DNA of 64,000 nt from Cyanidioschyzon merolae (Eukaryota). Every line of letters begins with the position of its first letter. The stretch's first letter is position 1. The notes below the pieces were generated by a model. It did no database searches, was not told the origin of the DNA, and saw nothing but the letters and a program-made list of their open reading frames with translations. The stretch is taken from assembly GCA_000091205.1 (NCBI GenBank), contig AP006496.2, one strand, 5' to 3'. Shown here piece by piece: positions 1 to 50,750 of the stretch. Position numbers and translations under genes: made by a program.

Positions 1-1578
1 TGGCAGTGCAGAAGCAGCGTGTACCCGCTGTTGGGCAACCAACACAGCTCCTGGGCAGCTACAAGATCAGGCCAGATGCGCACCATCGCCCAGAGCGCCG
101 GATCGACCTCATCAGTCTCACCTCGGAGTCGTTCTTGATCGCTGCGGCTCAGCGAGTCAAGTAATCTCTCCACTGAGTAGAGACGGAAGAAGTGTTGCGC
201 AATCCGCAGATCCGAGACCACAACCGAAAGCGCCGCCAGGTCGGAGTCGGTCATGAGCATCCAGCCACCCAGCAATAGCCGCAGATGCTCGTCGAGTTCC
301 TCCGCGAGTCGCTCTCCCATGACGCTTTTCGGACTCGTGGAGGACTCCTGCTGGAGCAGGTCAACCCAATCGAGTACGGTCACGAGATGCTTTTGCATGA
401 ACGCAGGCGACGGGAGGAGCGCCTCCAGAACGCCACGAGCCAGGGAAGCGTTCCGCTCTTGCCCAGAGGTCGCAGGTGGAAGCGCTCGTTGCTCCTTCGC
501 CAGGTCACGGATTGCAGTATCGAGAAGATTTGATGCAGTAATGAACAAATTCAAAGCGATGAAAGAGGGATCGCCCAGGGTCTGCGGTACTTTCAGATGC
601 TCCGCAGCGCCACTGGATGCATCGGTTACCAGCCTCGACGATTTCTCTGGGCTCGTCATCCGTTCCTCTTGCGGTGCGCGTGCGGCTTTTCGGGCAGCAC
701 CAACCAAGTCATGCAAGCGCTCGCAGATGTATGCCTGCAGCGTCGGAAGCAGTTCGCCGCGCCTCTGCAGGCAGGCAAGCAAGTGCTTTGTCTCTGGGTG
801 CTCGCCATCACAGAGAAAAGTGACTGTCGAGAGCAGCTCTGCGAATACAGCTTCTGGCAATGCGGGCTGTTGCACAGTTACCCCAGCGGACGGCAATGAT
901 ATCGCGTTGAGGCGCTGTGAGCGCTGCGCCCGACACTCGTGGACAATGAGTTCCAGCAAGTCAACGCGGTCGAGACACGGTGATACTTGAAAGCAGACCG
1001 CATCTGTTGTCAAGTCGATCTTCAGCAGTGAGGCATAGAGCGTGAAGTCATTGAGCGCGAACAACTCCACTAGTTTTTTTGCAGCTTCTTGCCAGTCCGA
1101 GCGCTGCAGCAGCACCTCGTCGAGGCTTTGGGTATTCGGTGCGAGCACGGGGACGCTTTCAGCGTTAGGGCCAGGAGAGCGCCTCTGGGACAAAAGTTCA
1201 GCTGCAAAACAAGGACGTGTCGGTTGCTGTGGCGAACTCGACACCGAGCCCGTACACTCTGGAGCGTGACCATTGGTTACCGAAACCGTGCCGTTTTTGC
1301 ACCCTAGGGTTTCAGTCTTTTTCCGTTCGTCCGCGATAGCTGTGGGAAACTCCTGGGAACCACAGCGCAAGTGAACGTTACGAAGCGGATAACTTGCTTC
1401 TTTCCCAAAAAGCCGCAGCTTAATCCAGATCTCACCGTCACGTTCTCGAATGGATTGGACGGTGCCGCTCTCCCAGAGTCCTTCTGCGGTGCGTACCTCG
1501 ACGCAGCGACCTCGCTTCAGCCAAACTGGAAGCGCTACGGCAGCGTCAGTCGGGGTTGACGTTTTGCGCCCCAGCATC
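1..1578 (-). CDS. 3'-truncated gene (continues beyond window start); protein with N-terminal Tudor/chromo-barrel-like domain, >=525 aa in window
   Basis: I translated the reverse complement of 1-1578 by hand and spot-checked six segments against the plus strand. One frame is open from ATG (complement of 1576-1578, with an in-frame TAG just upstream at 1629-1631) all the way to position 1. The N-terminus is MLGRKTSTPTDAAVALPVWLKRGRCVEVRTAEGLWESGTVQSIRERDGEIWIKLRLFGKEASYPLRNVHL, a Tudor-knot-like pattern, followed by a long helical-looking region. It is absent from the ORF track, presumably because there is no stop codon inside the window. The three open plus-strand frames at 253-990 are its antisense. 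Confidence 0.5.
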
Positions 1579-2351
1579 AGGTGGGCCCGCGAGCATGAAG
1601 CAACCCACGAATACGTATACACAAACCGCTACTCTGGAGAGCGTCTCGTTAATCAGGACGCTGCAAAGGCACCCCAGGGATCTGCCGAGTCGATGTTCGA
1701 AAAGCCAAGGATAGAGTGGATTCCTGCGAGGCCGACGTACGCCTCAGCGTGTCGGGGCGTGGCGGAGCATAGCCACGTTTGGCGCCACTACCATGGAATG
1801 AAGCCAAAATCCAGCTCCTCCATGTGTCTCAGATTCGAGGAGATCATTGAACTGTTCGTTCTGTTTCCGATTTTGTATTTTTCAGCTCTTGTTTTAGTTG
1901 TACAGCCTTGACATTCAAAGCGTGGCGATGAGAGGTTAGGGATGCATACGTCGTTCTAGGATTCGTGGTTGAATTTGTTTTTCGGAATGGCACAGATGAC
2001 CCTCGATCACTGGAATCGGTTACGTCATGCGAATCGTGGTGATTCGCGGAAGCTCGCAAAGAATGGTTCGTAAAATGAGCGACAAAATTAATGGATTCAT
2101 CAATACGGGCCTCTATGAGTCTTTTCTTCTTACGTGTAGCATGTTCAAATCACGCATTCTTCAAGTTTTTTACGGTCTTCCTGGTCCACGGCAACTCGCG
2201 GGTGCAGCTGCTCGCGCGTCGCTCCGGATTACCGCGGATCAAATCGTACAGTCTTGCATTGACGACCGCTGTTCAAGCCTATCCCGAAAGTTGATGGAAC
2301 TTGGCAGGTCGAATAATCGATGCTGTCGAAAAACAAATTCTCCAGTCTTTC

Positions 2352-2960
2352 TGAATACCCACGAAACTGCATTCCATAGCAGTAGGATACCAGTCGCGGG
2401 ATCTGCTCGCAGCGGCTTCTGTCACTTCTCTTTGCACGGTAAAGCGCCCTGGACTCGCGCTTGCGTCATCGGGGCGATCGCTTCTGGCGGAGAATGCGTC
2501 AGCGCTTTGCGTGAAGGCAGCGCTGTCGGATCGGAGTTTCTCGACTTGATTTCCATCCCGGATTTTCGTCCCGTTCATTGTTTCATCATGAACAACATCG
2601 CGTTCCGACAATCCTCCATGGAATGGAACAGCGTGCGCTTGCGTGCGCAGCTGACGGAAGACTCTCCGAGGATATCTCGCAGATAGAGCTTGTGATCCTG
2701 GGGTACAGCACCGAGCGCGGAAACGGAGTAAAGCATGTAGGGAAACCTTCTCTACCCGTCCAGGGCACGTACCGTGCAGTGAAACATGCGCTCATGTGCC
2801 AGAGAACGGCCGTTGGTAGAGAAAGTATTGCGGATACATTTGGGCACTTGACCTCCACCGAGTGTCACTGCTGCGCAGGACACACCGAGGGTACCATGCA
2901 AAGAAGAAGGCGATGGGAAAAGGATCGCAGATCTCAGCTTCCGTCCGCGCAAGCGATGCA
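2352..2960 (+). repeat. Copy of unclassified dispersed repeat family R1 (~0.6 kb)
   Basis: Nucleotide-level alignment to the 19.3-19.9 kb, 9.3-9.7 kb (minus strand), 27.05-27.34 kb and inverted-repeat-arm copies. Shared blocks include aaactgcattc near the 5' end, ggagaa(t/c)gcgtcagcgct, cccggatt, ccatggaatgg and (a/g)agtgtcac. Translated similarities between the overlapping ORFs 2027..2686 and 2578..3039 follow from this DNA homology. Confidence 0.5.
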
Positions 2961-4548
2961 TTCCTACCAACCGAACGTGGCGAAACTGGGGCTTGATCGC
3001 TGCGATCAAGCCTCAGTTTCTGCTGCTCTGCAAGGATGAAAAAATAGCTTGAACGTTGCGGTCGTCTACAAAGTGCCAAGTTGCTTCCTGCAGGCACAGC
3101 ATCTAAAACTTTGCATAGAGTACTGACCAGCGCGCTGAACCCGGCAAATGTTCCTGCAGCAGCGCTCCGCGCGGAATCGATACACAGCCGCACGCCATTC
3201 GCCTGCTACTGCGCCTAACCTTCGACCAGAGCAGTGTGTCTATTGTTCGCATGCGAATCACTGCTCGCAGACGGAGAACCTGGTGCAGCATCCCGACTGG
3301 AATCGACGGTCGGACTGCGCGGTGCTGAACCTGCGGGTACAATTTTGTCCGTACATACAGTCCATGGACAAAGCGCGTGTCGTGGAGCGTGCGAGCGCCT
3401 TGACGCCGTCGCGCGCTGGCGAATCAACGTATCCGTTCGTAGGGCTCGGTTGGCCCAGTTCGAGAGTGTTCACTACACGAGGCGAATCGCAGTCTCGGAC
3501 CAGTCGCTGCGTTCGCCAACGCTCGGCCTGGGAATCCGCAGCGACACTGCGACGCCATGCTGTCGCTGGAACGGAGGATCGTGTGGGCGGACCACTATCC
3601 CCGAATCAATGCTTGGATAACGGTAAAGAGGACTGGGAGGATTTGGTGCGCCATGTAGGCTTGCTTCCCGGATGCCGATAACCATCACATCATTGGGGAT
3701 CAGAGGTTAGATTCCAAAATCCTACACCATTAGGAATCACACTCGCGGTCCTGAGCACTTGGTAACCATCCGACACTCGGGGATTCCTCGTTAGATTCAA
3801 CAATGCTCTACCATGACGTCTTCCTATTGCTGGGTTCCGCCTGCGTTCGCCCGGGCGCCTCGCCGTGCTCCAGATGATCGATCATGGCGGAGCGTGCCAG
3901 CTGGAATCATCGCGAGGTATCGTGCCAGGCCCCAATATTACCTTGTGTGTCAAAGGCGGCACCGCGACGCGCACCAGCGACAGAGCCTGCAGCAAGAGAT
4001 TACTCTACGTGAGCTTCCGAGCTACGACACCTGATTTTCGCTGCAGTGCGATGCGAACACGCACGTGCGAGTGCGGGGTGTCGGACACGTGTCCTTCATC
4101 GATCGGTGAGGCGTCTCGCGCGGTGCACGCAGTGCGCTAAGTGAGCGTTCCTGGGAGATCAGGCAGGCATAAGACACGACGCGCGTGCCGCCGCTGAAGG
4201 GAAACGCGATCCTGATCTCTGGTGTGTTGTTCAGCTGTAAAAGTTGTATTCGCGCTGGAGTCGAACAAAAATATAGTTTTCAGTTCGTTTTTGTTTCAAA
4301 CTTCAAACAAGTCTAGTCAAATGTTTTTTCGCAGTATATAACAGAAGGGTTTAAAGAGCGTTCAAGAAATATAAAAATAAAAAAACGGAAAAAGGAACGC
4401 TATGAAAAAGCAAATGCACGATCCTGGAGGCCCAGGTTCGCCGGCTGCCAGAAAAAAATAGTGCCGAGTCCAGAAGAAAAGGAAGAGAAGAAGGACCGAA
4501 AGGCGGAGGTCCTACGTCGAAGGCGGCAAGAAAGACGACTGTACGACG

Positions 4549-5263
4549 AGATGGTGGTGAAAACCTTTCTTCTTGGACATATCAAGGATCCGTACAGGGA
4601 AAAGTTGCGAGACGCTATCGAAAAACGTGTTGCGTCATACTCCAAGAATATTATAAAGGCGTCGTCAGGACTGATGCATTTAGCAAGGGAGATGTACGAA
4701 GACGTCGCGAACATGGAAACGGTCGAGATTCCAGACGAGTTTTTCGACAAACCTTTATTCGTCAGCTGATGCTTGGCACAGGGGAAGTGCGGAGGGAAAA
4801 TGAGCGGGTGCGCGCCCTCCACGAAAAATATCCCTTTTACAGCTTCAATGGTACTCGATACAAGGGTGACCGGGGTATTTACGGCTACGGGGCGATGAAG
4901 TACCCCACGAACCTGAAGAACCATTTGACAGAGAACTTCGAACGTTTCATGGTACGCGCCGTGTTTGCGCTGTATCCGGACATCTCTCGCAATGGAAAAT
5001 GGGCGATGATCAACGGCATCACGAGCGATCGCAAGCATGAAGATGAGGTCGAATTTGTCGACAAGAAAGCGCCAAACGAGAACACGAATGAAGCTTCTGT
5101 AATCCGTGCGGTTATACAAGAGCATCGTGCGGTACTGGGGCTGGCGTATCCAACAGACAAGATATCAGCGTTGAAAAAGATAAGGAAAGATACTATCGCC
5201 TCATCCTGCGATATTTCGTGTTTCTGGACCGAGAGCTCGAACGCAAGGCAGAAACGAAGCTAA
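4549..5263 (+). CDS. Element ORF1 (about 240 aa if read from the first ATG across the frameshift; also the ORF-track pieces 4461..4769 and 4769..5263); K/R/E-rich NLS-like N-terminus; function unknown; frameshifted in copy A
   Basis: It is conserved with copy B: ...IKASSGLMHL..., ...GDRGIYGYGAMKYPTNLKN..., ...RNGKWAMINGITSDRKHED.... In copy B the region is a single frame. Copy A has lost one nucleotide near 4752 (A: aaacctttattcg; B: aagaccttttttcgc), which gives the TGA at 4767 and the frame switch. The first in-frame ATG is 4549 (MVVKTFLLG). The tracker start at 4461 is a GTG. Confidence 0.3.
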
Positions 5264-6618
5264 GTGAAGGAAAAAATGAAGAGTGGGAGAGACGGAAGGC
5301 TGCCCTAATGGGGAAGCGCTTCGATGTGGTTCCAGTGTGCAAGATCAAGTCACATTTTGTGACTATCGACTCCGGCGTCCTCTACGGCATCATGAGGGAC
5401 ATCAGTCCGGAGTTCAGTGTCAGCAGGGAGAACTTCACCGGCGAAAACCGGGAGACGTACTTGAAGAACATCTCCAATTTCAAACGTCTGAGAGTGAACA
5501 AGCAAAAGTTGTTCACTGGGATGATCGAAACCGATGGAGTAGCCTTGTGTGTACACTATCGGCGGTTGAAGAAAGATCGGCCAGTTCCGCCCTCGGCTGC
5601 GCCCGTGACGAAGGGTGCAGAAAAGAAAGAGGCGGATCCTGAGACGCAGGAGGTGGAGGATAACGACTTTGTCGTTGAAGTGACGAAGGATGAAGATGAG
5701 AAGGAGGCGGATCCTGCGACACAGAAGGTGCAAGATAACGACCTTGTCGTTGATGCGGCGAAGGATGAAGATGAGAAGGAGGCGGATCCTGAGACGCAGG
5801 AGGTGGAGGATAACGACTTTGTCGTTTGCGCGGACCCTGGGAACACGAATATCATCACCATCGCAGCACCGAAGCGTGCGGAAGATGGTACTGATGGTAA
5901 CGTACGTCAGAAAGACATGCGAGTTTTGAGGATCTCGAGAGCGAGATACTATCGAGAATCGGGAATAATGAATGCGAGGAAGAAAATTGCTACATGGAAT
6001 GCAGGAATGAAGGATCACCTGGAAGCTTTGAGTGAGGTGACTAGCCGAAGAGCGGACTTTCAAGCTTTTCGGAAATTCATGGAAGTTTGCATTGTCCATT
6101 GGGATGCACTGTGGGAGGAGTATACCAAGGCCCGGTGGGCTCGTTTGCGTATGAATTTGTATTGTGGGAAGCAGCGGGGGTTCGCGAATTTATTCAATAA
6201 CTTGAGCGCCTTGAAGGAGGATGAAAATCAGAGGCTCGTCGTAGCATACGGAGCAGGGCGCTGGAAGACCCAAAAAGGGACTACTCCAGCTCCAACGACA
6301 AGAACATACAGGGAGTGCGCACGGCGTTTCGTTACGATACCTGTAGATGAGTTCCGAACGTCCTATGCACACCATGAACTGGGTTGTACACTTCAGAGAG
6401 TCGAGATGGAAAAGTGCCAGAGGAGCGCTGAGGAAATAGCAAAGTACGGACCGCTGACGGAGGCGCAAACGGAAAGGAGTGCGAAAGTTCGTGGACTACT
6501 CGCTTTAGTGAGTATAACTCCGGACGGGAAGAAACGTATGGAGTTTGTGAACCGAGATTTTAATGCCGCAATCAATCTACGGAAATGTGCGGTACTGGAC
6601 AAGAGACCTCCAGAGTAG
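5218..6618 (+). CDS. TnpB-like RuvC nuclease of a eukaryotic OMEGA (Fanzor-type) system, 466 aa
   Basis: Motifs in order along the protein: [15 protein letters not shown] (RuvC-I, Asp ~205); [20 protein letters not shown]...EKC (TS motif plus a degenerate H/C zinc knuckle); [18 protein letters not shown] (RuvC-III, the RDxNAAxNI hallmark of TnpB, Cas12 and Fanzor). The canonical RuvC-II Glu is not obvious; the expected position reads RLVVAYGAG. The start codon is uncertain: the tracker uses a GTG, and the frame stays open further upstream. Confidence 0.7.
5619..5830 (+). repeat. 75-bp (25-aa) acidic tandem repeat x~2.8 inside ORF2
   Basis: The unit gaggcggatcct...gatgaagatgagaag recurs at 5619, 5694 and 5769, encoding [25 protein letters not shown]. 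Copy B has a single unit. Confidence 0.85.
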
Positions 6619-6843
6619 ACAAGAGAGAACTTTATTGGACAACCTCTCAAAGTCGAACTATATGAGAAAATGTTGGAAGCAGTAGTGGGTGGCCGGTCCA
6701 AAAAGACGGGCAGGCGTCTGCACATCAGTCAGAGACGATTTGTCTAAGGCGCGTTCGCCGCCATTACTGTACGCCGCCGACGTCGTTCGACTCTCGAAAG
6801 GCGTTTAGTCGTGGCGACAAGTCTGCAGTTCCAGTTGCAAGCA

Positions 6844-20589: not shown

Positions 20590-22149
20590 CTAGCAGCATT
20601 CTGCAGCATCAATCGCTGCACTCGTACTCCCAGAAGTGACCGTTTCATCGCCTCGCTCACACAACGAGCATCTGGGCTGCTGCTGCTGCTGCTGCGGCGG
20701 CGGCGGCGGCGGCGGCGGCGAGCTCTTTGCGAACAGAATCGACATCATCCCTTTCCGCTTCCAATAAAGAATCCCCATCATCAAAAATCCAGCACCGAGG
20801 ACCAGCGAGACGGCAACGACGACAAACCACGGCCAGGAGGGAGCCGTTTCCTCATAGGCTGGAATCGCAATGTTCATTCCGAAAAAATCCGCCGGAATCA
20901 GCATTATCAGGATCGTACAGAACCACAGATGACAGCTGATGTTCACTGTCCATAGCCGAGTCTGTTTCGCTGCGAGCGCAATCACTGTCAGTTCTTCAAT
21001 GTTGTGCAGCTGCTTCCGCAAGGCAGCTGCAGACATTTCATGATCATGGCACTGCCATAGCGCCCATTCAATCAGCGTGTAGACGCTCTCTTGAGTCGAG
21101 GCAAATGATGCCCGCATCCCAGCGTCATCGCCGGGGATGCACTCTCCGACCCAGGCTGCGACGGTTTCCGCAATACCGTCGTCGAGGCTCTCCTCCAGGC
21201 AGACACGGAGGTTCCGGGCTCGCAGCGCTACGAGTGCCACTTGTCGTGCTGCGCCTTGTAAAAGCCGCGGAGCCGCGGACTTTTCCACGGTATTGATGTG
21301 CAGTTGGCCGTGCTGCAGCTGCTGTTTGATCCACTGCAGCTTGCGCTCATTCGACTGAACGCAGGTATGGAGCATCGCTGCAAGGGCACGAAATCCAAAC
21401 GCCTCTCCTGGATCTGTTTCTGGCCCCGTGAGCCGACCAGACACCATTCGATGCAGGATGCGAGCATGCTCGCAGTCGAAATCCTGTATCAGCAGGCGTT
21501 CGGGTTCCAGAACAGCGCAGAGATGACGATGAAGCGCTGCGATGATCATACGGGGTCGAACTCGAATGGTCGGCTGCATCTGGTACACCGGCATGAAAAG
21601 TCGACGATCCACCGAATGGATGAAGATGTTTCGAATCTCTGCGCCTGATGCGCTCGAGTTTGAGTGGGGTATCCGCGTCGTCGTCCTCTTCGTCTTTGCC
21701 GTCGCTGAAGCTATACAGCATTCGTCATTGCGACATGGATCTTTTGAGCTGTACGCTGAGCACGAAAGCGTTTCGTAATGTTCGCGCGCGCCTTGCTTGC
21801 TTTCGACTCGACCGGCTCGAGGAACGCGATGCTCCGCGAACATACACAGACCGGCGCACGGCTGCGTCTCGCAGTAACATGTTCGCGACCAGATGACCTG
21901 TCCCTGATAGCCCGACGCTCTGTATTCGTGAAATCGATAGTTGAGCACGAGCAGTGCCTCCTGGCCGACGGCAGAGAGCCCCGAAACTCCGCCAGGGAAA
22001 GCGCCGGCACTCGCGAGCGTCTCGACGGAGCTGGCGAGTCGACTCGCTGGATTCTGCGCTATGCTCCGCAGAGGCCCAGACTCGAGACCATCGAAGATCG
22101 TTTTCCGCGGCTTGTTCTCTGACGCTGCAGTGAACCGCCGCTGAGGCAT
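20590..22149 (-). CDS. CorA/MRS2-family Mg2+ transporter, 519 aa
   Basis: The C-terminal transmembrane hairpin carries the diagnostic FFGMNIAIP (GMN) motif followed by TM2 (WPWFVVVAVSLVLGAGFLMMGIL). The poly-Pro/poly-Gln tail is encoded by a (CGG)n(CTG)n microsatellite. Confidence 0.8.
   Translation of the reverse strand: MPQRRFTAASENKPRKTIFDGLESGPLRSIAQNPASRLASSVETLASAGAFPGGVSGLSAVGQEALLVLNYRFHEYRASGYQGQVIWSRTCYCETQPCAGLCMFAEHRVPRAGRVESKQGAREHYETLSCSAYSSKDPCRNDECCIASATAKTKRTTTRIPHSNSSASGAEIRNIFIHSVDRRLFMPVYQMQPTIRVRPRMIIAALHRHLCAVLEPERLLIQDFDCEHARILHRMVSGRLTGPETDPGEAFGFRALAAMLHTCVQSNERKLQWIKQQLQHGQLHINTVEKSAAPRLLQGAARQVALVALRARNLRVCLEESLDDGIAETVAAWVGECIPGDDAGMRASFASTQESVYTLIEWALWQCHDHEMSAAALRKQLHNIEELTVIALAAKQTRLWTVNISCHLWFCTILIMLIPADFFGMNIAIPAYEETAPSWPWFVVVAVSLVLGAGFLMMGILYWKRKGMMSILFAKSSPPPPPPPPQQQQQQPRCSLCERGDETVTSGSTSAAIDAAECC
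20678..20720 (+). repeat. (CTG)6(CGG)8 compound microsatellite inside the CorA CDS
   Basis: ctgctgctgctgctgctgcggcggcggcggcggcggcggcg. On the minus strand it encodes PPPPPPPPQQQQQQ. Confidence 0.9.
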
Positions 22150-22419: not shown

Positions 22420-23040
22420 CTCAGGTTCTTAGAGTCTTTCATTTGAATCGTGTTTCAATCCTCAAGTAAGTGTAATCAAGTGATTTTTCAGGGTTTGTAG
22501 CTGGAGCATTCAGAGTGTGTTCTTTTTAAAAAATAAACTTACGGGAATGGAAGTGAAGGATCCTGGAGGCCGTCATCGCCGGATGCCAGAGAAAAAGGAC
22601 GAAAATTTCGATCTTCTCGCCGACCATCGAGGGAGAAGTGCAAGTGACGAAGAAGAAGAAGAACAGGGTAGGTAGATGACAAAAGATGTTTGTCCGACAG
22701 GATGATGACGAGACTGTAGTCGAATAGAGGCCACGAGTTCTGGCAATCCTTGCGATGGTGAGTTCAACCAGAGGCAATGCACGCATGGAGATCGTGAACT
22801 TTGACTTTAACGCCACCATCAATACCAGACGATGTGTGGTGCTGAAGACGACTGCTGACGATATGAGGCCATCTATGTTTGTTGGGAAACCTCTCAGATG
22901 CGAAGTGTGCTAGGAGAAACTGAAAACGGCTGCAGGCGGCCAGTCAAAAAAGGCCGGGAGGCGTCTGAGAGGGAGTATATTTCTTTACACTCTATGGATC
23001 TACAGTTTTTTCGTTTCATTGAACACAAGGGTGCTTTTCC
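22420..23040 (+). mobile_element. Internally deleted (~0.6 kb) non-autonomous derivative of the Fanzor-family element, copy C
   Basis: Its 5' part (22444-22700) aligns to the leaders of A and B (ttgaatcgtgtttcaatcctcaagtaagtgtaatcaagtgattttt; ggatcctggaggcc...gccagagaaaaagg; gacgaagaagaagaagaac). Its 3' part (22780-22990) keeps a RuvC-III remnant, MEIVNFDFNATINT, and the conserved end block ggcggccagtcaaaaaaggccgggaggcgtctg. About 2 kb of internal sequence is missing. Confidence 0.55.
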
Positions 23041-24190
23041 TTTTGATGGACAGAACGCTCAACATGACCAGGGACGCTGTATTGCGGTATGGATTCGGGT
23101 AACCGGTAATGCATCTGTCGGTCCATACCCTTGGTTCAAGTTCTGGAAGCCACTCTTCGTACTTCCCCACGACGATACTGGTCATTCCGTACGTTCCATC
23201 GTGCGACGTTTCTCCTATGAGTTTTCGCAATAGTGCTTTTACAGTGCTGTTGCCAGCGCTGAATGTCCTCTGGCTGCCGGGGTGCTCGGATCACCGTCCA
23301 GGGTGTTGTCGGTCGCACCGCGATGCCACTTGGGGAGCCACTCGGCATGCGCTTGGCGCGCTTCTGTTGTCCCTGCTTCTAAGGTCTTCGGTGACCTCGG
23401 CATCCAACGAGCGCCTTGACTACACCACGCTCTAGTCGTCGGGATGTAACCTGAAGCAGCATCGTACGCGGAAGAGGTGAGGTTTACGTCCAGTGAACCG
23501 CGAGCATTTGCATATGCCCAGGGTGGGTGCCTCGACGCATCGACCCAGCGCCATCGACACGTGTGTGCTGTGTGTGTGTGTGTAGCACACGAGGATCTAA
23601 AGCGTTAAACGAATGCCGCAGTTCTTCGCTGAAGAAGCACCACATACGCGACGTATTAAGCATGAGGCTCCCATCGACACGGGTGCTTTTGCGTTACGGT
23701 GGCACCCAGCCCGGCATAGCGTTAGCGCAACGACACTGTCGCTCCGTTTCGAAAATACGTATGGTTTGTGGCAGTGGGTGGGCCCTGAAGATATGGTGCG
23801 GGAACCGCGGACGCTCTCCCGAAGGTCGATGACAACTGCGCAGTCGGGGATCCGCGGACTCGGGCAAACCTTCCGTCCATGAAGAGAAACAGGCGCAACG
23901 CCCAATCGGGCCGCATCGTGTCTCAACCGCAAGCTTCTGGTGCACTTCAGCTGCGCCCAGTTCGCATTTGCTGGGACTCGATAGGTGTTGGTATTCGACG
24001 GGTCGTACTGAGCAACGACATCGAGTCGCCATACAGGGCACTGCCAGCGTTTTCGTAGTTGCTGTCCCATTCAGGAGTTTATACGCGGCAAAACGCGCGC
24101 TTCGGACTCGGCACCGGCAAGTCGTCGCTACCACCGGGCGTCTTGCCGAGAAACTGGGCTTGGCATCGATTTCGCTGCAGTGAGTGGCCT

Positions 24191-41689: not shown

Positions 41690-42671
41690 TCTTCCTGCCG
41701 GCCAAAGTGTGTGTGTGCGCTAGTGCCTGCAACGCTCCTGGTACGCCTCGGGGGAGTATAACGGAGAATTGCTCGCGGGCTGGTGACCCGGGCGACGCGA
41801 TCTCCGGGAGGGGCTTGAGGCGGCGCGCGCCATTGCGCAGCGTCACGCTTTCGTCTGTTGACTGGTGTTAACGAGAAACGTCCAATAATTGTATTTAAAT
41901 GTATTAAATGATACAAAAATGAAATAGAAGCGTCAGCCTCATCTGGATGTGCTCGGAGCACGGAGACGGCTGCGACGATTTTTACGGTTTGACAGATCGC
42001 TCACATTGACCATGGATCGCAGAATGCGGAGTTGATGGATATTGGCTTTCAGGAAAGCGTCCATCATGCCGCTGCACCCTATCTTCAGTTTCCATTATTC
42101 ACGCTTCCTTTCGGCTGTACTGCTCGTCTAGTACGTTCTATCGTGCGCTGAGTTCCTGCTTTGAGCAGCCGCCGTAGCGCCTGTACCACTTGAGCGAATG
42201 CATCACGGAGACAGAACGGCTTTTTCCGTACCACTGAGGGCGTTGGCTCGAGGCGAGCATCATCCGGCACGGGGTCGGTGTATATCATCATTGTGGAAGC
42301 CTGCAAACTGCGCAGACAGACCAAGAGCTTGCGGTAATGGGAAGCGATATGCAAGGAGACCATCGCGACCAGAGCGACGCCCAGACGGTGCCTACCCGCT
42401 CCTCGTCCCAGCGTAGACTGCATTGGGGACGAGTCGCTCAGATCTCACTAAAGCACGTGCAAATGGGGCGAGCATCAAGCACGAGCGTGGGAGACTCGTC
42501 TCGCGTGCGGGACCTTCCGCACAGGCGGCAACCTTTCGACAATACGGGAAGATTTTCCCTCTTTTCATGTTTATCGTTGAGGGGGAATGAAATCGTTACA
42601 TCTTTGCTATTTAATGATTAGTCTCTTTTCTTTTTTCCGTATTGTGCGGTCGATACGCGCATCTCCATATC

Positions 42672-45160
42672 TGGCAGGCATGAGACACGACGTGCATCTC
42701 GCTGTTGAGGGGAAACGAGATCCTGACCTTTAGTGTGCAGCTCTAACCTACAAGTTGTATTATGGTTGAAGTCATAGCAGAGTATGCTCTCTCGATTCAA
42801 TCGTGTTTCAGCCCTCAAGCAAGTACATTCAAGTGATTTTCCACGATTTATAGCGGACGCATTCGAAATAGGATCTTTTTCAAAAATAAAAAAGAAAAGT
42901 AATCGAAATGGAAGTAGAGGATCCCGGAGGCGCGGTGTCACCTGCTGGTGGAAAAAAACGAAAAACAGAGTCAAACGTAGAGGAACAAGACATGACGAAG
43001 AAGCAGAAGAAGAAGGCCCGACGCCAAAGGCTGCGAGAAAGATGACAATACTACGAGATTGTTGTAAAAGCCTGTCTTCTTGGATAAATCAAGGATCTGT
43101 ACAAGCAAAAGTTACGAGAGGCCATCAGAAACTGTGTAGATTCGTACTCCATGAGTGGTATAAAGGCTTCGTCAGGGCTAATGCATTTGGTGAAGGAGCT
43201 GTATCGGGACCTGATGGAAATCAAAAGACGCGTGGTTCCGGAAGGTTTATTCAACAAGACCTTTTTTCGCCACCTGATTGTTGGCACAGGGGCAGCGTCG
43301 AGAAGAGATGAGGGAATGCACGCCCTCTACGAAAAATTCGCCGAATTCCGCTTCGACGGTACTCGATACATGGGTGATGCGGATATTTACGGATGCGGGG
43401 CAATGAAGTACCTCACGAATCTGAAGAACAATATGCTCAGTATCCTCGAACGTTTCATGTTACGTTCTATCTTTGCGCTGTACCCGGGCCTGTCTCGCAA
43501 TGGGATATGGGGCATCATCGAAAGTATCACGAACAATCGCCAGCATGAAGATAGGATCCAATCCGTCGACGACAAGACATCACGCAGGAGCAGGAATGAA
43601 GCTTCTGTATTGCGTACGGCTATACAGGAGCATCGTGCGGTACGGGGACTGGCGAATCCTGCAGAAAAGGTAACGGAAATGAAAAAAGATGTTATCACCT
43701 CATCCTAAGCTATTTCGTGCTTCTGGACCGAGAACTCGAACGCAAGGCAGAGATGGAGCTGGGCGTGAGAAAAAATGAAGAGTCGTTGGAACGGAAGGCT
43801 TTCCTGATGTGGAAGCGCTTCAACGTGGTTCCGTTGTGCAACATCAAGTCACATTTTGTGACTATCGACTCCGGAGTCGTTCATGGCATCGTAAGGGAGA
43901 TCAGTCCGGAGTTCGATGTAAGCAAGATAGAGTTCACCGATGAAACGCGGGAGACGTACTGGAAGAATATCTTCGATTTCAAACGTCTCAAAGTGAGCAA
44001 GCAAAAGCAGTTCACTGGGATGATCGAAACCGATGGAGAAGCCATCTGCGTACATCATCGGCGCTTGAAAGCAGATCGTCCAGTTCCGTCCTCGGCTTCG
44101 CCCTCGGCGAAGCATGAAGAAAAGAAGGTGGCGGATCCTGCGACACAGAAAGTGCAGGACAACGACTTTGTCGTTGGCGCGGCCCCCGGGAACTTGAATA
44201 TCACAACCATTGAAGCACCCAAGTGTGCGGAACATGGTGACGACGGCAACTGACGTCAGAAGGACATGCGTCTTGTAAAGTTCTCAAGGGCGAGGTATCG
44301 CCTAGAATCGTGAATAATGAATGCAAGGAAGAAATTTGGGACTTGGAATGCAGGAGTGAAGGAGCGCCTGGAAGCTATGAGCGCGGTGACGAACCGCGGA
44401 GCGGGCTTTGACTATTTTCGGGAATTCATGGAAGTTCGCATTGCTCATTGGGATGCGCTGTGAGGGGAGTACACCAAGTCACGATTAGCTCGTAAGTGTA
44501 TGAGACTGTACTGTGGGAAGCAGCTTCGCGTCGCGAACTTCTTCAATGAATTGAGCGCCCTCAAAGAGGATGAAAGGCGGAGGCTTGTAACAGCATACGG
44601 AGCAGGACGCTAGGCTTCCAAAAAAGGAGCATACCTGTTCCATCGACAAGAGTGTACAAGGAGTGCACACATCGTTTTCTCACGATACGGGTAGATGAGT
44701 TCTGAGCGTCGTATACACACTTCGAGCTGGGGTGTATACTCCAGAGGGTCGAGATGGAAAAGTGCCAGCGGAGCTCTAAGGATGTAAAAAAGTACGGAGC
44801 GCTGAAAGAACAGGAAATGGAACGGAGGGCACAGGTTCGAGAACTCCTTGCACTGGTGGGTACAACCAACGGGGGCAAGAAACGCATGGAGTTCGAGAAC
44901 GGTGACTTGTTCTCGCCGCAATCAATAGAACGAGATATGCGGTCCCGGAGAAGAGACCCGACGCGCTAACACGATCTAAAATTCGCAGGGCAGCCGTGCA
45001 GTGTCGAGGTGTACAACGAGAAACTGAAACCAGTAGCAGAGGGCCGGTCCAAAAAGACTGGAGGCGTCTGCACGTCAGTTGGAGATGTATTGTCTATGGC
45101 GGTCACTCGCCACTAATGTGCACCGGTTATGCAGCGTTTGATGATTGAACGGCATGCCTG
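42672..45160 (+). mobile_element. Fanzor-family element, copy B (degraded)
   Basis: It is collinear with copy A from ctggcaggcatgagacacgacg (about 4165 in copy A) through the conserved 3' block at 45031-45080. It has an AT-rich leader. Coding capacity is disrupted; see the pseudogene feature. Confidence 0.65.
43717..44969 (+). pseudogene. TnpB-like ORF2 of copy B, inactivated
   Basis: The RuvC-I Asp is replaced ([14 protein letters not shown] against [14 protein letters not shown] in A). There is a stop after ...CAEHGDDGN at 44253, and further frame breaks. The RuvC-III region has degenerated to MEFENGDLFSPQSIERD. The ORF1 homologue upstream also carries TGA and TAA stops (43043, 43085) and a TAA at 43706. 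Confidence 0.65.
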
Positions 45161-46402
45161 TGCTGGTGGTGGTGGTGCTGCGATGCGCAGGACGCACAAA
45201 CTCCGGCCTGCGTCGTTGCATCGCAAGGAGAAAAGATACGTCAGGGCAGGAGCAGGCGCCTACGAGTATCCCGCCTGTCATGTCTGCGCGGTGCAGGTTC
45301 ATTTGGTGGCTGTGCATTGGGTGCAGCGCGATGCACGCTTCTACAATGACTTGGAACTGTGTAACGCAACGATTGGCGGTAGCGGGTTGCATCGCTGTTA
45401 CTTCATGGTGCAGGTGCAGCCGCTGTATGTATCCCGCGAACTGAGGTACCACTCTCATCGATTCATGCACAAGCGCTGCGGCCATGCACTGATGCTGCGT
45501 TATGGGCGTCGGTGAATCGGCGAACAGGCTTCTCGCTCCACGGACTAACCTTCAAAAGCTTCGATCAAAAAGCCTCTGGGAGCGGGTTTTCTCGTTGCGG
45601 ACCTTAAAAGGCGATACCGTACAATTCTGTTGGCATCGTATTCGGAAATCGCAGCAGAGGAGCGCCAAGCATTCCGTGGCTGGTTTGCGAGATTCGCTGT
45701 CTGCTAGGCGAGGACTATGGACCTGAGCCACTCCCGACGCAGTGCCAGGCGAGCATGCATGCCACCCCTGGCACATCGCTATGATGCTCATATGTTCAAG
45801 GTCCAAGTATGCCCAGCCACGGCCATCGCTCCAATGCTGACTTGCTGGTGTCAACAGGACAACACCCCGTCTCCGCAAGGCTATTTCTTTATGAACCGGC
45901 CATGTCCGGAAACGTAAGCATAGCATGACAGAATCCTGTATGATATAGGATAGAGACGATGGTTTTTAATTCTCTAATCAGCAGGAGAGAGAGCGTTGCC
46001 AGCGAGCACGCTGCGCGAACAACAGGAACGGTTAGTGGTCGCTGCTACCTCTTGTCACGTAGATTATCACTCGATCACCCAGATGCACTTGTGAGCGTAG
46101 CGCCCATCATCCCTGAATTCCGAATCCTAGTGAAATGTTCCCCATGAGTGATAAAACTTGCCTGTGTAGACGATCCCCAAAGCGCCGGTGGTGCTGTAGC
46201 CGTCCACCTGCTGCGCCTCCGGCTTGCGCAGTCCTAACGCAGATGACGCGTACGCTGTCGTGCAGCGCCACAGTGTTACGCCTACCTGTTGCCGTTCGGG
46301 TTAGGTAGGTTTTGTTTTCGGGCGCTCCGTCTTGGTGTAAGCGGTAGTCAGAGGTGCTCGGCGCAGGAGCAGCGACAACCGAGTGTTGCGCGTGCGTTTC
46401 CC

Positions 46403-48412: not shown

Positions 48413-48900
48413 TTGCTGAAAGGCGTCAAGGCCTTCGCCCTACCGTTAGATCACGAGGGCGGAGCCAAATACCTGAACCGTAACCAGATGACGCCGCTCA
48501 GCTCTTCATGGACTTGGTATCATCGAGAGTCGGGCTTGATGGACCCCAGGAAGCACATCGCCAACTGGAATGACGACGACACGGCCTACCTTGATGCTCT
48601 GGGCACCATGCCATGCAGGCGCGGACACTTTGAACGCCTCGTCTGGAGAATACGTGAGAGCGCGCCTGGGCCGCCAACAGTTTCGGTTACAAGGATTCGC
48701 GACGTTTGCATTCGTCAACGTCTCTAATGACTTGGAAAAAGAAATGACCCACTGGTTGTGTCATTTGCTCGTAGCCAATCGCGCTGGACGTGCTGTAGCG
48801 CGCAAAGGCTGCACTCCTGGGGCCCCCGCCAGCACCCGAATCGAGTGCTGGAATCTCTTCTGTACGATTCGCATCGATGCGCTCTAGATGACGTACACGT
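48413..48900 (+). pseudogene. Divergent TnpB/Fanzor-like relic, copy D
   Basis: ORF 48413..48727 contains WYHRESGLMDPRKHIANWNDDDTAYLDAL. The counterparts are [28 protein letters not shown] in copy A and RARYRLES*IMNARKKFGTWNAGVKERLEAM in copy B. The ~130 aa that follow in A are collapsed here, and no RuvC-III motif is recognisable. Confidence 0.3.
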
Positions 48901-49565
48901 TTCAAGATTCGAGGAAGACGCTGAAGCAGGCTGAGCAGGAAAGCTTCAAACAGAGCTGAATGCACGAGATGGTGTCCTTGAAGACGAACAGACGTCAAAT
49001 GAGGATACAATAGAATAAGACAGGCCTGCACGGGGGTGTGTGCGAGCACCACCAACGATGCGCGCAAGCATTTTATGCACCAAGTCTTCAGCGCCTCAAT
49101 CAACATCCGAAAATATCTCGTGCTTCTGGAGCGTTCACACGCTTTAATTCAAGCAAGCCTTGGACGGAAGCGTTGAGTACTCTGAGTAGACGTTATGCGG
49201 AAACGCTGAAAACTTGTTATGAAAAAACCAGTCGCCAGTACAGTGGCAGTTGGATGCGCACCCGAAGCAAGGCACTGGTACAGTCCGCTTCGACAAGCCA
49301 GAGGCGCTGGACCGCCGCATGCATATACCTGGAATTTGATTCCTGGTTCATCGATAGACGATTATGGTGCTCCATGTTTCGATGTGACTTAGAAGCGGAC
49401 CGGTTCAACGCATGAGTGCCAAAATCGCAGCAGTATACACCAGAATGCACTAGGATATAGCGGCAAGAAAACAACAAGGATACAGGACCTTGTCAAGAGA
49501 TGGAGTGAACTATGGTCTTTTACATTTCGCCGTCGCGCTTTTTCTCGAAGAGTTTGTTTCATGGA

Positions 49566-50750
49566 TCAGGCTTTTTTCACCTTACCGCCTCGCAGCGTCT
49601 TCACCTGGGAGTAAATGGCAACTCCAGCGAGTGCGATGACAGTCCCAATGATGTTCTGTCGTGAAACGGGATTTCGGAAAAAGAGCACGGAGCTCACAAT
49701 AACCGCGACACGTTTCACGGTGTTTCCGATCGAATGCGTCACCGGCGAGACGCGCTGCAAGACCACATAGGAGAACTGGTTGTAGAGGTAATGCAGGAGT
49801 CCACAGAGCGCAAGCATCCCTAGCAATGAAAGACCTCCAATGGACGCATTCGCAGCACTCCACACACCTGCATACTTCGTGTAATCGACGACTATGGCTA
49901 ATGGGATAGCTGTAATCGCAGCTAAGCAGGATATCCAGCCGAAAAGGTTGACGTCATCGAACTCCACGCCTTTCATGAATTTTTTGCTTAGGACGTTGCG
50001 GGACTGGAAGGACACGTTGCTCGCAACTGCAGTAAGAAAACCGGGCCAGTTGAAGCTGACTTCGCTCACGGAGGCGAGAACAACACCGAATACAATTGGA
50101 ACCAGCGATGCATAGATTGGCCAGGAGAAGGTAGTACCGGGAAGAAAAATTTTCGCCAGAACCACGGAGAAGAAAGGTTCGCTTGCCTTGATGACATGGG
50201 TGAAACTAACCGCCATTTGTCGCAGGGAGAAGTTCGTGAAGAGGTTTCCAAAGAGATGCGCTAATGCCAGCGGATAGATTTTCCGCAAGTCGGCGGGTGT
50301 CGCGCGTTGAAACCGATGCATGCGCGTGCCCCACAGAAAAAGCGAAATAGTTGCCCCGGCGAGCATTTGTACGGCGGTGACACTCACGAAGAGCGGGAAT
50401 GACTTCATCAGCGTCTTGTTGACGATGTTAAAACCAATGTTTGCAGCATACCAACAGGCGATGTATGCTCCTAGGGCCAGACGGCGCCCAAGTGAGGCGC
50501 TGAGATCAGTCGGCGCACTCGTGCCGCTCGCCGCTGGCTCTGATGCCGTCATCTGCAGCGTTGCGGGCGAGCAATGCTGAGTATGACGTTCAATCACGTG
50601 GGTCTTGGTCTTTCCAGGAAAAAGACTACAGCGCTTGTACTGAATCGACTGCCAGCGCCTCGTGCTCGCTGGTGCCGTGTTCGAGCGAAAGGCTGCACCC
50701 GATAGCCGCCAGCACGGCGCAGGCGACGTCATCACAAATGCTGGCTCCAT
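49566..50750 (-). CDS. Plastidic phosphate translocator family protein (TPT/PPT/GPT-like, DMT superfamily), 394 aa with an N-terminal presequence
   Basis: LGAYIACWYAANIGFNIVNKTLMKSFPLFVSVTAV...HVIKASEPFFSVVLAKIFLPG...NVSFQSRNVLSKKFMKG. The KASEPFF and NV.F..RNV..KK motifs are characteristic of the plastid triose-phosphate and PEP translocators. About 90 aa of S/T/A/R-rich leader precede the first transmembrane helix. Confidence 0.8.
   Translation of the reverse strand: MEPAFVMTSPAPCWRLSGAAFRSNTAPASTRRWQSIQYKRCSLFPGKTKTHVIERHTQHCSPATLQMTASEPAASGTSAPTDLSASLGRRLALGAYIACWYAANIGFNIVNKTLMKSFPLFVSVTAVQMLAGATISLFLWGTRMHRFQRATPADLRKIYPLALAHLFGNLFTNFSLRQMAVSFTHVIKASEPFFSVVLAKIFLPGTTFSWPIYASLVPIVFGVVLASVSEVSFNWPGFLTAVASNVSFQSRNVLSKKFMKGVEFDDVNLFGWISCLAAITAIPLAIVVDYTKYAGVWSAANASIGGLSLLGMLALCGLLHYLYNQFSYVVLQRVSPVTHSIGNTVKRVAVIVSSVLFFRNPVSRQNIIGTVIALAGVAIYSQVKTLRGGKVKKA

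Follow-up and report, generated by a model that had tools for sequence, protein, structure and literature searches.

The segment at positions 3900-6803 of the window, a 64-kb stretch of chromosome 14 of Cyanidioschyzon merolae 10D that was analysed as a whole, is very probably a dead, 5'-truncated copy (copy 1 below) of the CMe-1 Fanzor1 family, whose published consensus is CMe-1A. An earlier note, made from the letters of this DNA, had seen in it a TnpB-like (Fanzor-type) element and had left open whether the family was new; it is not, being the CMe-1A/CMe-1 family of the study in which Fanzor received its name (Bao & Jurka 2013, Mobile DNA 4:12, PMC3627910). There, CMe-1A is a C. merolae Fanzor1 family with some 150 copies, whose identity to the consensus is around 80%; it has no TIRs and codes in a single exon for the 734-aa protein CMe-1, and the first 635 bp of its consensus are homologous to TE-N2_CMe. 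Taking the 3169-bp CMe-1A consensus from Additional file 2 of that paper, we found by blastn that positions 4157-6803 correspond to consensus 671-3169, with 84-89% DNA identity over 2.5 kb. The eukaryotic host named in the note is confirmed by two neighbouring proteins, which match C. merolae 10D CMN319C and a phosphate translocator exactly.

Table 1. Coordinates of copy 1, its parts and its relatives in the window
Feature	Position	Strand	Basis
Copy 1, 5'-truncated pseudogene copy from the CMe-1 (Fanzor1) transposon family	3900-6803	+	blastn to CMe-1A consensus; 5' part common to other copies
Alternative 5' module, absent from the 2013 consensus, cut short at ~3900 in copy 1	3900-4156	+	similarity to other copies
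AT-rich leader (element promoter/5'UTR region), consensus 671-905	4157-4401	+	alignment to consensus, sequence reading
Original start ATG (4402-4404) and first 19 codons, ending at TAG (4459-4461)	4402-4461	+	sequence reading; indel list
ORF fragment 1, N-terminal REC/WED part, about consensus aa 24-125	4461-4769	+	alignment to CMe-1
ORF fragment 2, REC part, about consensus aa 126-290	4769-5263	+	alignment to CMe-1
ORF2, 466 aa, C-terminal 60% of the Fanzor1 protein, consensus aa 276-691	5218-6618	+	BLASTP to CMe-1
75-bp tandem repeat x3, acidic 25-aa unit, in frame, just before RuvC-I	5605-5826	+	TRF
RuvC-I catalytic Asp D206 (ORF2), in ADPGNTN	5833-5835	+	Asp in 89/89 relatives
Gly G345 at the canonical RuvC-II Glu position (VVAYGAG)	6250-6252	+	Gly in 89/89 relatives
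Alternative RuvC-II catalytic Glu E378, in VDEFRTS	6349-6351	+	Glu in 89/89 relatives
RuvC-III catalytic Asp D447, in NRDFNAA	6556-6558	+	Asp in 85/86 residues aligned at the column
Premature stop TAG (consensus TTG, Leu), removes last 43 codons	6616-6618	+	sequence reading, alignment
Leftover in-frame C-terminal coding sequence to original stop TAA (6745-6747)	6619-6747	+	sequence reading, alignment
3' untranslated end, GGCG...CGCC hairpin and terminal hairpin (6780-6803) ending on the last base	6748-6803	+	hairpin energies
CMe-1A remnant with an internal deletion that fuses consensus 786-965 to 2849-3083	22430-22967	+	similarity to consensus
Copy 2, full-length CMe-1A, consensus 4-3154, 82-83% identity, five frameshifting indels	41987-45154	+	blastn, alignment
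Strongly degraded remnant from a second Fanzor1-like family of greater divergence	48416-49137	+	tblastn

Boundaries and relatives of the element

The span of 4165-6800 (~2.6 kb) first proposed for the element needs correction at both ends. Its 3' end lies exactly at 6803, past which similarity among 34-40 non-redundant copies drops sharply, and on the 5' side it reaches to about 3900, where it is truncated. The module at 3900-4156 shares 74-85% identity with the upstream regions of 10 other copies (L066, L020, L068, L008, L061, L005, L056, L074, L028, L060), which carry about 220 bp more of it than copy 1 does. Copy 1 has no match to consensus 1-670 and lacks the TE-N2_CMe-homologous 635 bp that define the 5' end of CMe-1A; this absence, together with the different 5' module, indicates by sequence comparison that copy 1 is a subfamily variant of CMe-1 and not a strict CMe-1A. 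The AT-rich leader described earlier was found, the AT-rich stretch itself lying at about 4260-4400. Two environmental orthologous loci, L045 and L079, are 98.4-99.5% identical to copy 1.

The window holds four copies or remnants in total, in agreement with the claim of at least three further relatives in it (Table 1). The aligned portion of copy 2 (41990-45139) corresponds to consensus 4-3154, and this copy keeps the TE-N2_CMe-like 5' part (81% identity over consensus 4-669). The most decayed remnant, at 48416-49137, contains no long ORF and matches the relative P0143 by tblastn in three co-linear pieces at 33-42% identity, with weaker similarity to CMe-1 and to P0002, an intact 752-aa relative. 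A further 360 related stretches were found in metagenome contigs.

The conserved 3' UTR is 56 nt long, and an omega-RNA scaffold, if the family follows Fanzor1/TnpB, would lie within it (6748-6803); in Fanzor1 the omega-RNA (fRNA) is encoded at the element's 3' end, across or after the stop codon, and takes its guide from the flank. RNAalifold folded this end at -5.9 kcal/mol with one covarying pair; covariation in the local 3' hairpins was not above the shuffle control, and the 3' end has no match in Rfam.

Mobility of the family

As to how the element moves, the carrier may possibly be a non-autonomous Helitron2-type (rolling-circle) transposon like Chlamydomonas CRe-1/2/3, with a RepHel protein supplying its mobility in trans; this reading, which we regard as plausible but doubtful, is compatible with copy 1 being a dead CMe-1 Fanzor1 copy. 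Non-autonomous Helitron2 elements are described with a 5' hairpin and ATIRs, a 3' hairpin preceded by an ATIR, TTTT just before the insertion point and a RepHel partner, and their reported target is TTTT^T/C. The flanks of CMe-1 copies match this target: full-length copies are immediately preceded by a T run, and the 3' flanks begin with T (T at +2 in 32/34). In both subfamily variants the terminal hairpin closes on the last base (-13.4 and about -7 kcal/mol), and many copies are 5'-truncated or 5'-variable with a fixed 3' end, the pattern described for CRe-1. The consensus also contains an exact 10-nt inverted match between positions 5-14 and 3098-3107, a length reached by only 3/2000 shuffles; however, its 3' part stands 62 nt from the end instead of the typical 20-30 nt, and it is seen in the consensus only, not in individual decayed copies. 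Conservation of the 3' flank over about 10 nt (TTTGTTGYYG) is likewise more than a T^T target explains, and the 2013 paper of Bao & Jurka, in which Helitron2 itself was defined, assigns CMe-1A to no class. We know of no RepHel partner in C. merolae. The Helitron2-like look of the termini may be a new observation.

Retroposition, i.e. target-primed reverse transcription of the element transcript, would explain both 5' truncation and a short simple-repeat-like tail, and the variable 5' ends, the constant 3' end and the (KTG)n-like 3' flanks (e.g. TTTGTTGTTG, GTGGTGGTG) fit it. We nevertheless consider it improbable, as no reverse transcriptase is linked to the CMe-1 family, target-site duplications are not evident, poly(A) is absent, and many apparent 5' variants result from internal deletions or the use of alternative modules and are not simple truncations.

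Lesions of the nuclease gene

The window ORFs at 4461-4769, 4769-5263 and 5218-6618 align co-linearly to CMe-1 and are three frames of a single 734-aa gene. In a mafft alignment to the consensus, copy 1 carries a 7-bp deletion at about 4453, which creates the TAG at 4459-4461, and 1-bp deletions at about 4750 and 5173, which part fragment 1 from fragment 2 and fragment 2 from ORF2, respectively; the residues of fragment 1 form one continuous frame in both P0002 and the CMe-1 consensus protein. ORF2 was present as reported earlier (466 aa, plus strand) and contains WED strands, a disordered acidic linker, RuvC and a reduced TNB. It begins with GTG, its first ATG being codon 31, and 354 of its 466 residues (76%) are identical to CMe-1 by BLASTP, or 85% outside a 50-aa repeat insertion. 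That insertion reflects the tandem repeat, which is present as one 75-bp unit in the consensus and amounts to 150 bp of additional sequence in copy 1; it sits in a disordered linker, with pLDDT <50 at the equivalent P0002 residues 376-469. The premature TAG at 6616-6618 is common to L045, L079 and P0001, the lesions of copy 1 recur in L045 and L079 as independent environmental orthologues, and an intact CDS was found in none of 81 sources (80 environmental loci and the window). The dN/dS of ORF2 against the consensus is 0.27-0.29, thus most of its divergence accrued while the lineage was still coding, and the death of the copy is recent when measured against how far it has diverged from the consensus of the family.

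An active CMe-1 element would have encoded one bilobed 734-aa protein, with REC/WED at the N terminus and, at the C terminus, a RuvC nuclease whose D...E...D triad is rearranged. Going by its homologues SpuFz1, PpFz1 and GtFz1, this protein would bind an omega-RNA from the 3' end of the element and then cut DNA that carries a transposon-adjacent motif (TAM) and a match to the guide; a candidate TAM is hinted at only by the T-rich sequence that lies 5' of full-length copies. In copy 1, three frameshifts and a nonsense codon split the gene, leaving only the RuvC-containing 466-codon fragment open. Because of these lesions and the lost 5' end, copy 1 cannot make a functional nuclease, and two earlier descriptions of it are not supported: that it behaves as a mobile OMEGA-type system, and that it is the most intact copy, copy 2 being the full-length one at the DNA level. 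The converse, that copy 1 is a functional OMEGA-type system in which ORF2 alone, or the ORFs joined by frameshifting, produces a working RNA-guided nuclease and so maintains the mobility of the element, is very unlikely. While ORF2 keeps all three catalytic residues, has a low dN/dS and, like the other two fragments, contains no further stops, it lacks the first 275 residues (REC/WED lobe), which in solved Fanzor1 structures clamp the TAM duplex and form the cleft for the RNA-DNA heteroduplex (PMC11423790). Moreover, a stop follows 19 codons past the ATG, made by the 7-bp deletion, ORF2 has no ATG before codon 31, the 5' end of the element is gone, and a nonsense codon together with three separate shifts that differ in direction does not fit the pattern of programmed frameshifting.

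Fanzor1 homology and catalytic site

A profile of 89 relatives, searched against the PDB, matched PpFz1 (9cf0, E=1.3e-21), SpuFz1 (8gkh, 2.1e-12) and GtFz1 (9cer, 4e-8) with the catalytic motifs aligned. Structure was modelled on P0002, which is 75% identical, and not on the broken protein of the window; the AlphaFold2 model (pLDDT 82, pTM 0.80) gave in Foldseek against the PDB seven best matches that were all Fanzor1 (E=1.6e-16 to 1.5e-13, target TM 0.50-0.73), Cas12 proteins following only at E>0.03. Judged by profile and model, CMe-1 is thus a true Fanzor1-type TnpB homologue, as the earlier note had read from the motifs, and the Foldseek comparison that it had called for led to Fanzor1 structures (E=1e-16, TM 0.71). 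The Pfam comparison that it had also suggested divides: as single sequences the window ORFs have no Pfam, NCBIfam or PDB match, and thus none to the OrfB models, and P0002 reaches only E=0.23 to PF07282, while 11 of 70 relatives match this model weakly, which points to a reduced TNB that remains. The missing OrfB match is therefore not a valid refutation, since these relatives match PF07282 and the family profile matches solved Fanzor1 structures; rather, the lack of Pfam and NCBIfam matches in the ORFs and the E value of P0002 indicate that the CMe-1 protein is a superfamily-level homologue of bacterial TnpB and not a member of TnpB as such. That the motifs are a chance resemblance in an unrelated repetitive protein, a reading favoured only by the ORFs having no Pfam or NCBIfam match of their own, is refuted by the profile-to-PDB and fold searches, which return only Fanzor1 (E 1e-8 to 1e-21), and has next to no probability given catalytic columns that are invariant or nearly so in 89 relatives.

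Both motifs noted for RuvC-I and RuvC-III were located and are conserved across the 89 relatives. CADPGNTN lies at nt 5827-5850, the Gly of its D-P/x-G motif being present in 89/89 relatives and the motif aligning to DPG/DPN of PpFz1 and SpuFz1; the RuvC-III motif (xRDxNAAxNI, nt 6550-6579) aligns to NRD of the same two proteins, with Arg in 86/87 and Asp in 85/86 of the relatives aligned there. At LVVAYGAG (nt 6235-6258), where displacement of the RuvC-II Glu had been suspected, the canonical position holds Gly. Fanzors are known to carry Gly or Pro at this site (PMC10530073), and the rearranged RuvC-II is defined by an alternative conserved Glu downstream in DE[FY]xT[ST] (PMC10530073, PMC11423790); in copy 1 the compensating Glu lies 33 residues downstream of G345 in DEFRTS, which aligns to DEFRTS/DEYKTS of PpFz1/SpuFz1. 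D206, E378 (in DEF) and D447 are thus the putative rearranged Fanzor catalytic triad. The suggestion of a combined TS/zinc-knuckle motif held for its first half: the segment with DEFRTS is present at nt 6346-6387, but zinc-binding CxxC...CxxC pairs are absent between the catalytic Glu and the last Asp of copy 1, which has ...EKC there, and 88/89 clade relatives have no CxxC in this short stretch (41-70 aa). A C4 zinc finger has been listed as strictly conserved in Fanzor1, and CMe-1 was put in Fanzor1 despite missing it (Bao & Jurka 2013, PMC3627910). Such cysteines are expected of TnpB/Fanzor, and their absence makes even intact family members only candidate nucleases. The clade-wide lack of these cysteines (88/89 relatives) may be new.

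Significance and comparison with known systems

As a discovery, the locus carries little weight: it is a dead copy, and the paper that coined the name Fanzor had already reported the family together with its host, copy number and relationship to TnpB. What is added here is confirmation of CMe-1 as a Fanzor1 at the level of profile and structure, corrected boundaries, a lesion map, a clade without the zinc-finger cysteines said to be universal, and terminal features suggesting a Helitron2-like carrier. We tentatively propose, as a possibility less likely than not, that CMe-1 and more than 1,000 uncharacterised relatives from public metagenomes form a distinct Fanzor1 lineage without TNB zinc-ribbon ligands, with a D-E-D triad under purifying selection, carried by rolling-circle elements of a Helitron2-like kind that have T runs as their insertion sites. 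If this holds, the lineage would represent a structurally minimised form of the RNA-guided nuclease that works independently of zinc, and the mobility of the C. merolae family, to which no mechanism was assigned in 2013, would have an explanation. Since C. merolae is an easily handled model alga that has almost no introns and supports homologous recombination, a resurrected CMe-1 consensus would offer an easy test of DNA cutting by a zinc-less Fanzor1.

Among known systems, CMe-1A/CMe-1 shares with copy 1 the organism, the 3' end, the absence of TIRs and an old, decayed multi-copy state, whereas copy 1 has another 5' module in place of the TE-N2_CMe-like first 635-670 bp, is truncated, has three acidic repeat units against one, and its gene is broken. 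SpuFz1, PpFz1 and GtFz1 (PDB 8gkh, 9ceu-9cez, 9cf0-9cf3, 9cer-9cet) resemble CMe-1 in the bilobed fold (TM 0.71-0.73 to SpuFz), in the DPG...DE[FY]xT[ST]...NRD motifs with Gly at the canonical RuvC-II site, and in having multi-copy eukaryotic transposons as carriers; however, the CMe-1 clade shares only 12-15% sequence identity with them, has a short Glu-Asp segment (41-70 aa) without CxxC...CxxC zinc ligands and a long disordered acidic repeat linker, and its omega-RNA, TAM and cleavage are predicted by homology only, whereas these three proteins have been characterised experimentally. Bacterial TnpB (IS200/IS605, IS607; e.g. ISDra2 TnpB) and Cas12f share the RuvC (RNase-H-like) core and the [TS][TS] and RD motifs, with weak PF07282 matches in 11/70 relatives and with Cas12f and other Cas12 proteins as distant fold matches; in CMe-1, by contrast, Gly stands in place of the canonical RuvC-II Glu and the catalytic Glu has moved to another position, the REC lobe is much larger, there is neither a TnpA partner nor a zinc ribbon, and the host is a eukaryotic nucleus. 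Chlamydomonas CRe-1, 2 and 3 likewise have Fanzor1 cargo, a 3' terminal hairpin, a T-rich insertion context, 3' ends that outnumber 5' ends and a short 5'/3'-subterminal inverted match, but differ from CMe-1, where the distance of this match from the end is 62 nt and the gene is intronless.

Results

Copy 1, the element under study, is a decayed copy of a transposon family described in 2013, and the family is already known. The paper that named Fanzor (Bao & Jurka 2013, PMC3627910) lists a single Fanzor1 family for C. merolae, CMe-1A, with ~150 copies, each ~80% identical to a consensus of 3169 bp that codes in one exon for a 734-aa protein (CMe-1), lacks TIRs and has no determined TSDs; another repeat, TE-N2_CMe, makes up its initial 635 bp. 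Using the consensus DNA and the CMe-1 protein from the supplementary files of that paper, we found that window 4157-6803 matches consensus 671-3169 at 84-89% identity and stops exactly at the consensus end, while ORF2, the RuvC-containing part of the copy 1 gene, shares 354 identities with CMe-1 residues 276-691, the sole large gap being a 50-aa insertion.

Three relatives of copy 1 were found by self-comparison of the window, as the earlier note had anticipated. When aligned to the consensus, copy 2 matches positions 4-3154 over window 41990-45139 (82% identity), and a short remnant (22430-22599 and 22736-22967) is a CMe-1A copy with an internal deletion. The remnant has its leader joined to the 3' end, and a 49-bp scrap of TE-N2-like 5' region lies ~200 bp past it, at 23160-23208. 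The third relative (48416-49137, +) aligns co-linearly with P0143, a metagenome protein, in three pieces at 33-42% identity. It is the decayed relic of a second Fanzor1-like family that is more divergent; only one Fanzor family was recognised in C. merolae by Bao & Jurka (PMC3627910).

Features of the copy 1 gene and relatives of copy 1 in the window
Feature	Position	Strand	Basis or remark
Original ATG of copy 1 gene	4402	+	direct reading
7-bp deletion	near 4453	+	alignment to CMe-1A consensus; makes TAG 19 codons after ATG
1-bp deletions	near 4750 and 5173	+	alignment to CMe-1A consensus
CADPGNTN	5827-5850	+	ORF2
RuvC-I Asp	D206 of ORF2		conserved in 89/89 relatives
LVVAYGAG	6235-6258	+	ORF2
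Gly in AYG	G345 of ORF2		conserved in 89/89 relatives
[TS][TS] motif stretch (14 letters, sequence not shown)	6346-6387	+	ORF2
Glu in DEF	E378 of ORF2		conserved in 89/89 relatives
RD motif stretch (10 letters, sequence not shown)	6550-6579	+	ORF2
Final Asp	D447 of ORF2		85/86 aligned residues
TTG to TAG	6616-6618	+	43 codons ahead of real stop TAA 6745-6747
Short remnant	near 22.4-23.0 kb		window self-comparison
Copy 2	~42.0-45.1 kb		74% DNA identity to copy 1 (window self-comparison)
Much more divergent remnant	near 48.4-49.1 kb		window self-comparison

Pfam and NCBIfam scans of the three window ORFs, together with a PDB phmmer search with ORF2, returned nothing relevant, and these single-sequence nulls reflect low sensitivity, not absent homology. 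The best Pfam match of P0002, a metagenome relative, was PF07282 at E=0.23. P0002 was also run by HMMER exhaustively against 1.84 billion representatives (E<=1e-3), which recovered 1232 relatives, many of them full-length (600-700 aa) at 30-40% identity; PF07282 was matched by 11 of 70 relatives, with a best E of 5e-6. A profile built from an alignment of 89 protein relatives matched exactly three kinds of protein among solved structures, namely the Fanzor1 of Parasitella (9cf0, E=1.3e-21), Spizellomyces (8gkh, E=2.1e-12) and Guillardia (9cer, E=4e-8), and DPG, DEFRT and NRD line up with the matching Fanzor motifs in these alignments. The AlphaFold2 model of P0002 from the same alignment is confident (pLDDT 82, pTM 0.80) and disordered only at the acidic repeat linker, residues 376-469. 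When the PDB was searched with this model by Foldseek, the first seven entries were all Fanzor1, with E values of 1.6e-16 to 1.5e-13 and a TM, normalised to the target, reaching 0.73; Cas12 proteins came next, at E>0.03. Homology to Fanzor/TnpB is established because the fold, RNase-H-like, matches Fanzor1 and the D/RD motifs align, so the Fanzor-type assignment was correct and falls to Fanzor1. Many of the homologues P0001-P0120 carry a precomputed Pfam label, PF26935.1, which a Pfam-A scan neither reproduces nor names.

ORF2 was recovered as first read (5218-6618, +, 466 aa), with its four motifs in place. ORFs 4461-4769 and 4769-5263 (both +) adjoin it, each in one of the two remaining frames; the single gene shows as three ORFs because of the two 1-bp deletions, and P0002 (752 aa) holds all three window segments in one frame, which is the intact arrangement. 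Copy 1 also has an in-frame 150-bp insertion, which TRF resolves into two additional copies of the 75-bp unit repeated at 5605-5826. This tandem array holds three units, each coding for an acidic 25-aa segment within a predicted disordered linker just before RuvC-I; the number of units ranges from 1 in the 2013 consensus to ~5-6 in metagenome copies. The lesions of copy 1 are not assembly errors, since two independent environmental contigs, L045 and L079, which are 98.4-99.5% identical over the element and flanking gene, share with copy 1 both the open stretch and the stop. Relative to the consensus, copy 2 carries five indels that shift the frame, and no intact CDS was found in the best 80 environmental loci, nor in copy 1 or copy 2. 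None of the 120 homologues listed came from NCBI or UniRef, so the reference C. merolae proteome seems to leave these genes unannotated. For ORF2, dN/dS was 0.27 relative to the CMe-1 consensus and 0.29 relative to P0002. The lineage was therefore still coding while most of the 13% divergence built up, which implies that copy 1 lost its activity fairly recently compared with that divergence and supports the argument made in 2013 (Bao & Jurka, PMC3627910) that the protein mattered for the family.

In Fanzors, Gly or Pro replaces the canonical RuvC-II Glu and an alternative conserved Glu lies downstream (Jiang et al. 2023, PMC10530073); in Fanzor1 this Glu is on a loop ahead of the TNB domain, the triad of SpuFz1 being D383/E541/D606 (Xu et al. 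2024, PMC11423790). The earlier note had taken LVVAYGAG as a sign of either a rearranged catalytic site or inactivity: the former holds, both the Gly and the downstream Glu being invariant among the relatives, and the latter is not implied by the rearrangement. A C4 zinc finger between the [TS][TS] motif and RD is held to be 'strictly conserved' (Bao & Jurka, PMC3627910). However, the 'zinc knuckle' proposed for ORF2 is not a zinc site: no CxxC pair occurs in the segment from the catalytic Glu to the final Asp (window 6346-6560), which has EKC, nor in the corresponding 41-70 residues in 88 of the 89 relatives. Because of this absence, the whole clade is, as judged from the alignment, one with a reduced, cysteine-poor TNB without the C4 zinc finger. 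Volvox VCa-1 and VCa-2 in the 2013 supplement have a similar cysteine-poor look by eye.

The 3' end is sharp, similarity among 34-40 non-redundant copies ending after ...GAAAGGCG at window 6803. The 5' end had been placed at 4165, whereas ten other copies match window ~3900-4156 at 74-85% identity. This module is not in the 2013 consensus, and since the ten copies share it and run ~220 bp further upstream, copy 1 belongs, as a 5'-truncated copy, to a subfamily whose 5' module differs, and it spans ~3900-6803. A simple 5' truncation at consensus 671 was dropped, the alternative module being common to other copies. As to extent, the complete element is copy 2, not copy 1, which had been called the most intact copy. 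In this subfamily (window 3900-4156 and loci L066, L028, L068, L020 and L008) the module takes the place of the TE-N2_CMe-like 5' region and measures ~480 bp, and several loci share further sequence ahead of it, suggesting composite or nested repeats. The metagenome contig L026 (Ga0080006_1131177) agrees with window 2500-4300 at 98% identity, within the element its identity is only 95% as far as 5833, and from there it diverges; recombination between copies or chimeric assembly may account for this.

Neighbouring minus-strand ORFs at 20590-22149 and 49566-50750 exactly match the C. merolae 10D proteins CMN319C and a phosphate/PEP translocator, which are encoded on an 852,727-bp chromosome. These matches bear out the clearly eukaryotic host and identify it as C. 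merolae, a red alga with almost no introns, and the chromosome as number 14. The last base of copy 1 lies only 40 nt upstream of the eL43/RPL37A ATG (6844) on the same strand, an insertion common to the environmental orthologues L045 and L079. This gene is highly expressed, and its promoter or start of transcription probably sits within the element 3' end.

Discussion

By homology, an intact CMe-1 protein would assemble with RNA transcribed across the element 3' end, the resulting RNP would cut TAM-flanked DNA matching a guide derived from the flank, and cleavage would favour retention of the element once it has been excised or copied. The 56-nt 3' UTR is conserved, with a GGCG...CGCC hairpin and a terminal hairpin ending on the last base, the latter in two subfamily variants, CGTCGTTCGA-CTT-TCGAACGGCG (-13.4 kcal/mol) and CGTTTTTC-TTTT-GAAAGGCG (about -7 kcal/mol). 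We only infer the omega-RNA step, since folding the final ~270 nt of 34 non-redundant copies with RNAalifold yielded a weak structure with essentially no covariation, three hand-defined 3' hairpins were 77% paired with covariation no better than column shuffles, and an Rfam scan of the whole window matched no family. The point is moot for the copy 1 locus because the gene is broken.

Helitron2 elements carry Fanzor1 in Chlamydomonas (Bao & Jurka 2013, PMC3627910), and the CMe-1 carrier could likewise be a Helitron2-like element, which we consider rather unlikely; the fit of its termini is partial. A T run lies ahead of full-length copies, 5' ends are variable or truncated and 3' ends constant, the 3' end is a hairpin, and 3' flanks start TTTGTTG..., position +2 being T in 32 of 34 copies and A being nearly absent from the first ten bases. 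Consensus 5-14 (GACAAAACGT) is the exact reverse complement of 3098-3107, a length reached by 3 of 2000 shuffles; however, the 3' inverted match sits 62 nt from the end and is visible in the consensus only, and the ATIR (inverted-repeat) idea was not upheld for individual decayed copies. The 3098-3107 stretch is a 3' subterminal site overlapping the stop codon (~6733-6744 in copy 1). The ten bases past the element end (6804-6813 in copy 1, 45155-45164 in copy 2) are non-random, ~TTTGTTGYYG over 34 copies (columns 278-287 of the 3'-end alignment), and this bias may stem from a preferred target, from terminal bases of the element that have gone unrecognised or from a tail of simple repeats.

With copy 1 placed as a decayed CMe-1A copy, only two points might repay more work: the clade's zinc-less TNB and its Helitron2-like termini. 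The CMe-1 clade differs from Fanzor1 as defined in 2013 (PMC3627910) in being without the C4 zinc finger, the 10-nt inverted match of CMe-1A is reminiscent of Helitron2 asymmetric terminal inverted repeats, and the RuvC-II arrangement of the copy 1 clade is exactly that of the Fanzors of Jiang et al. 2023 (PMC10530073).
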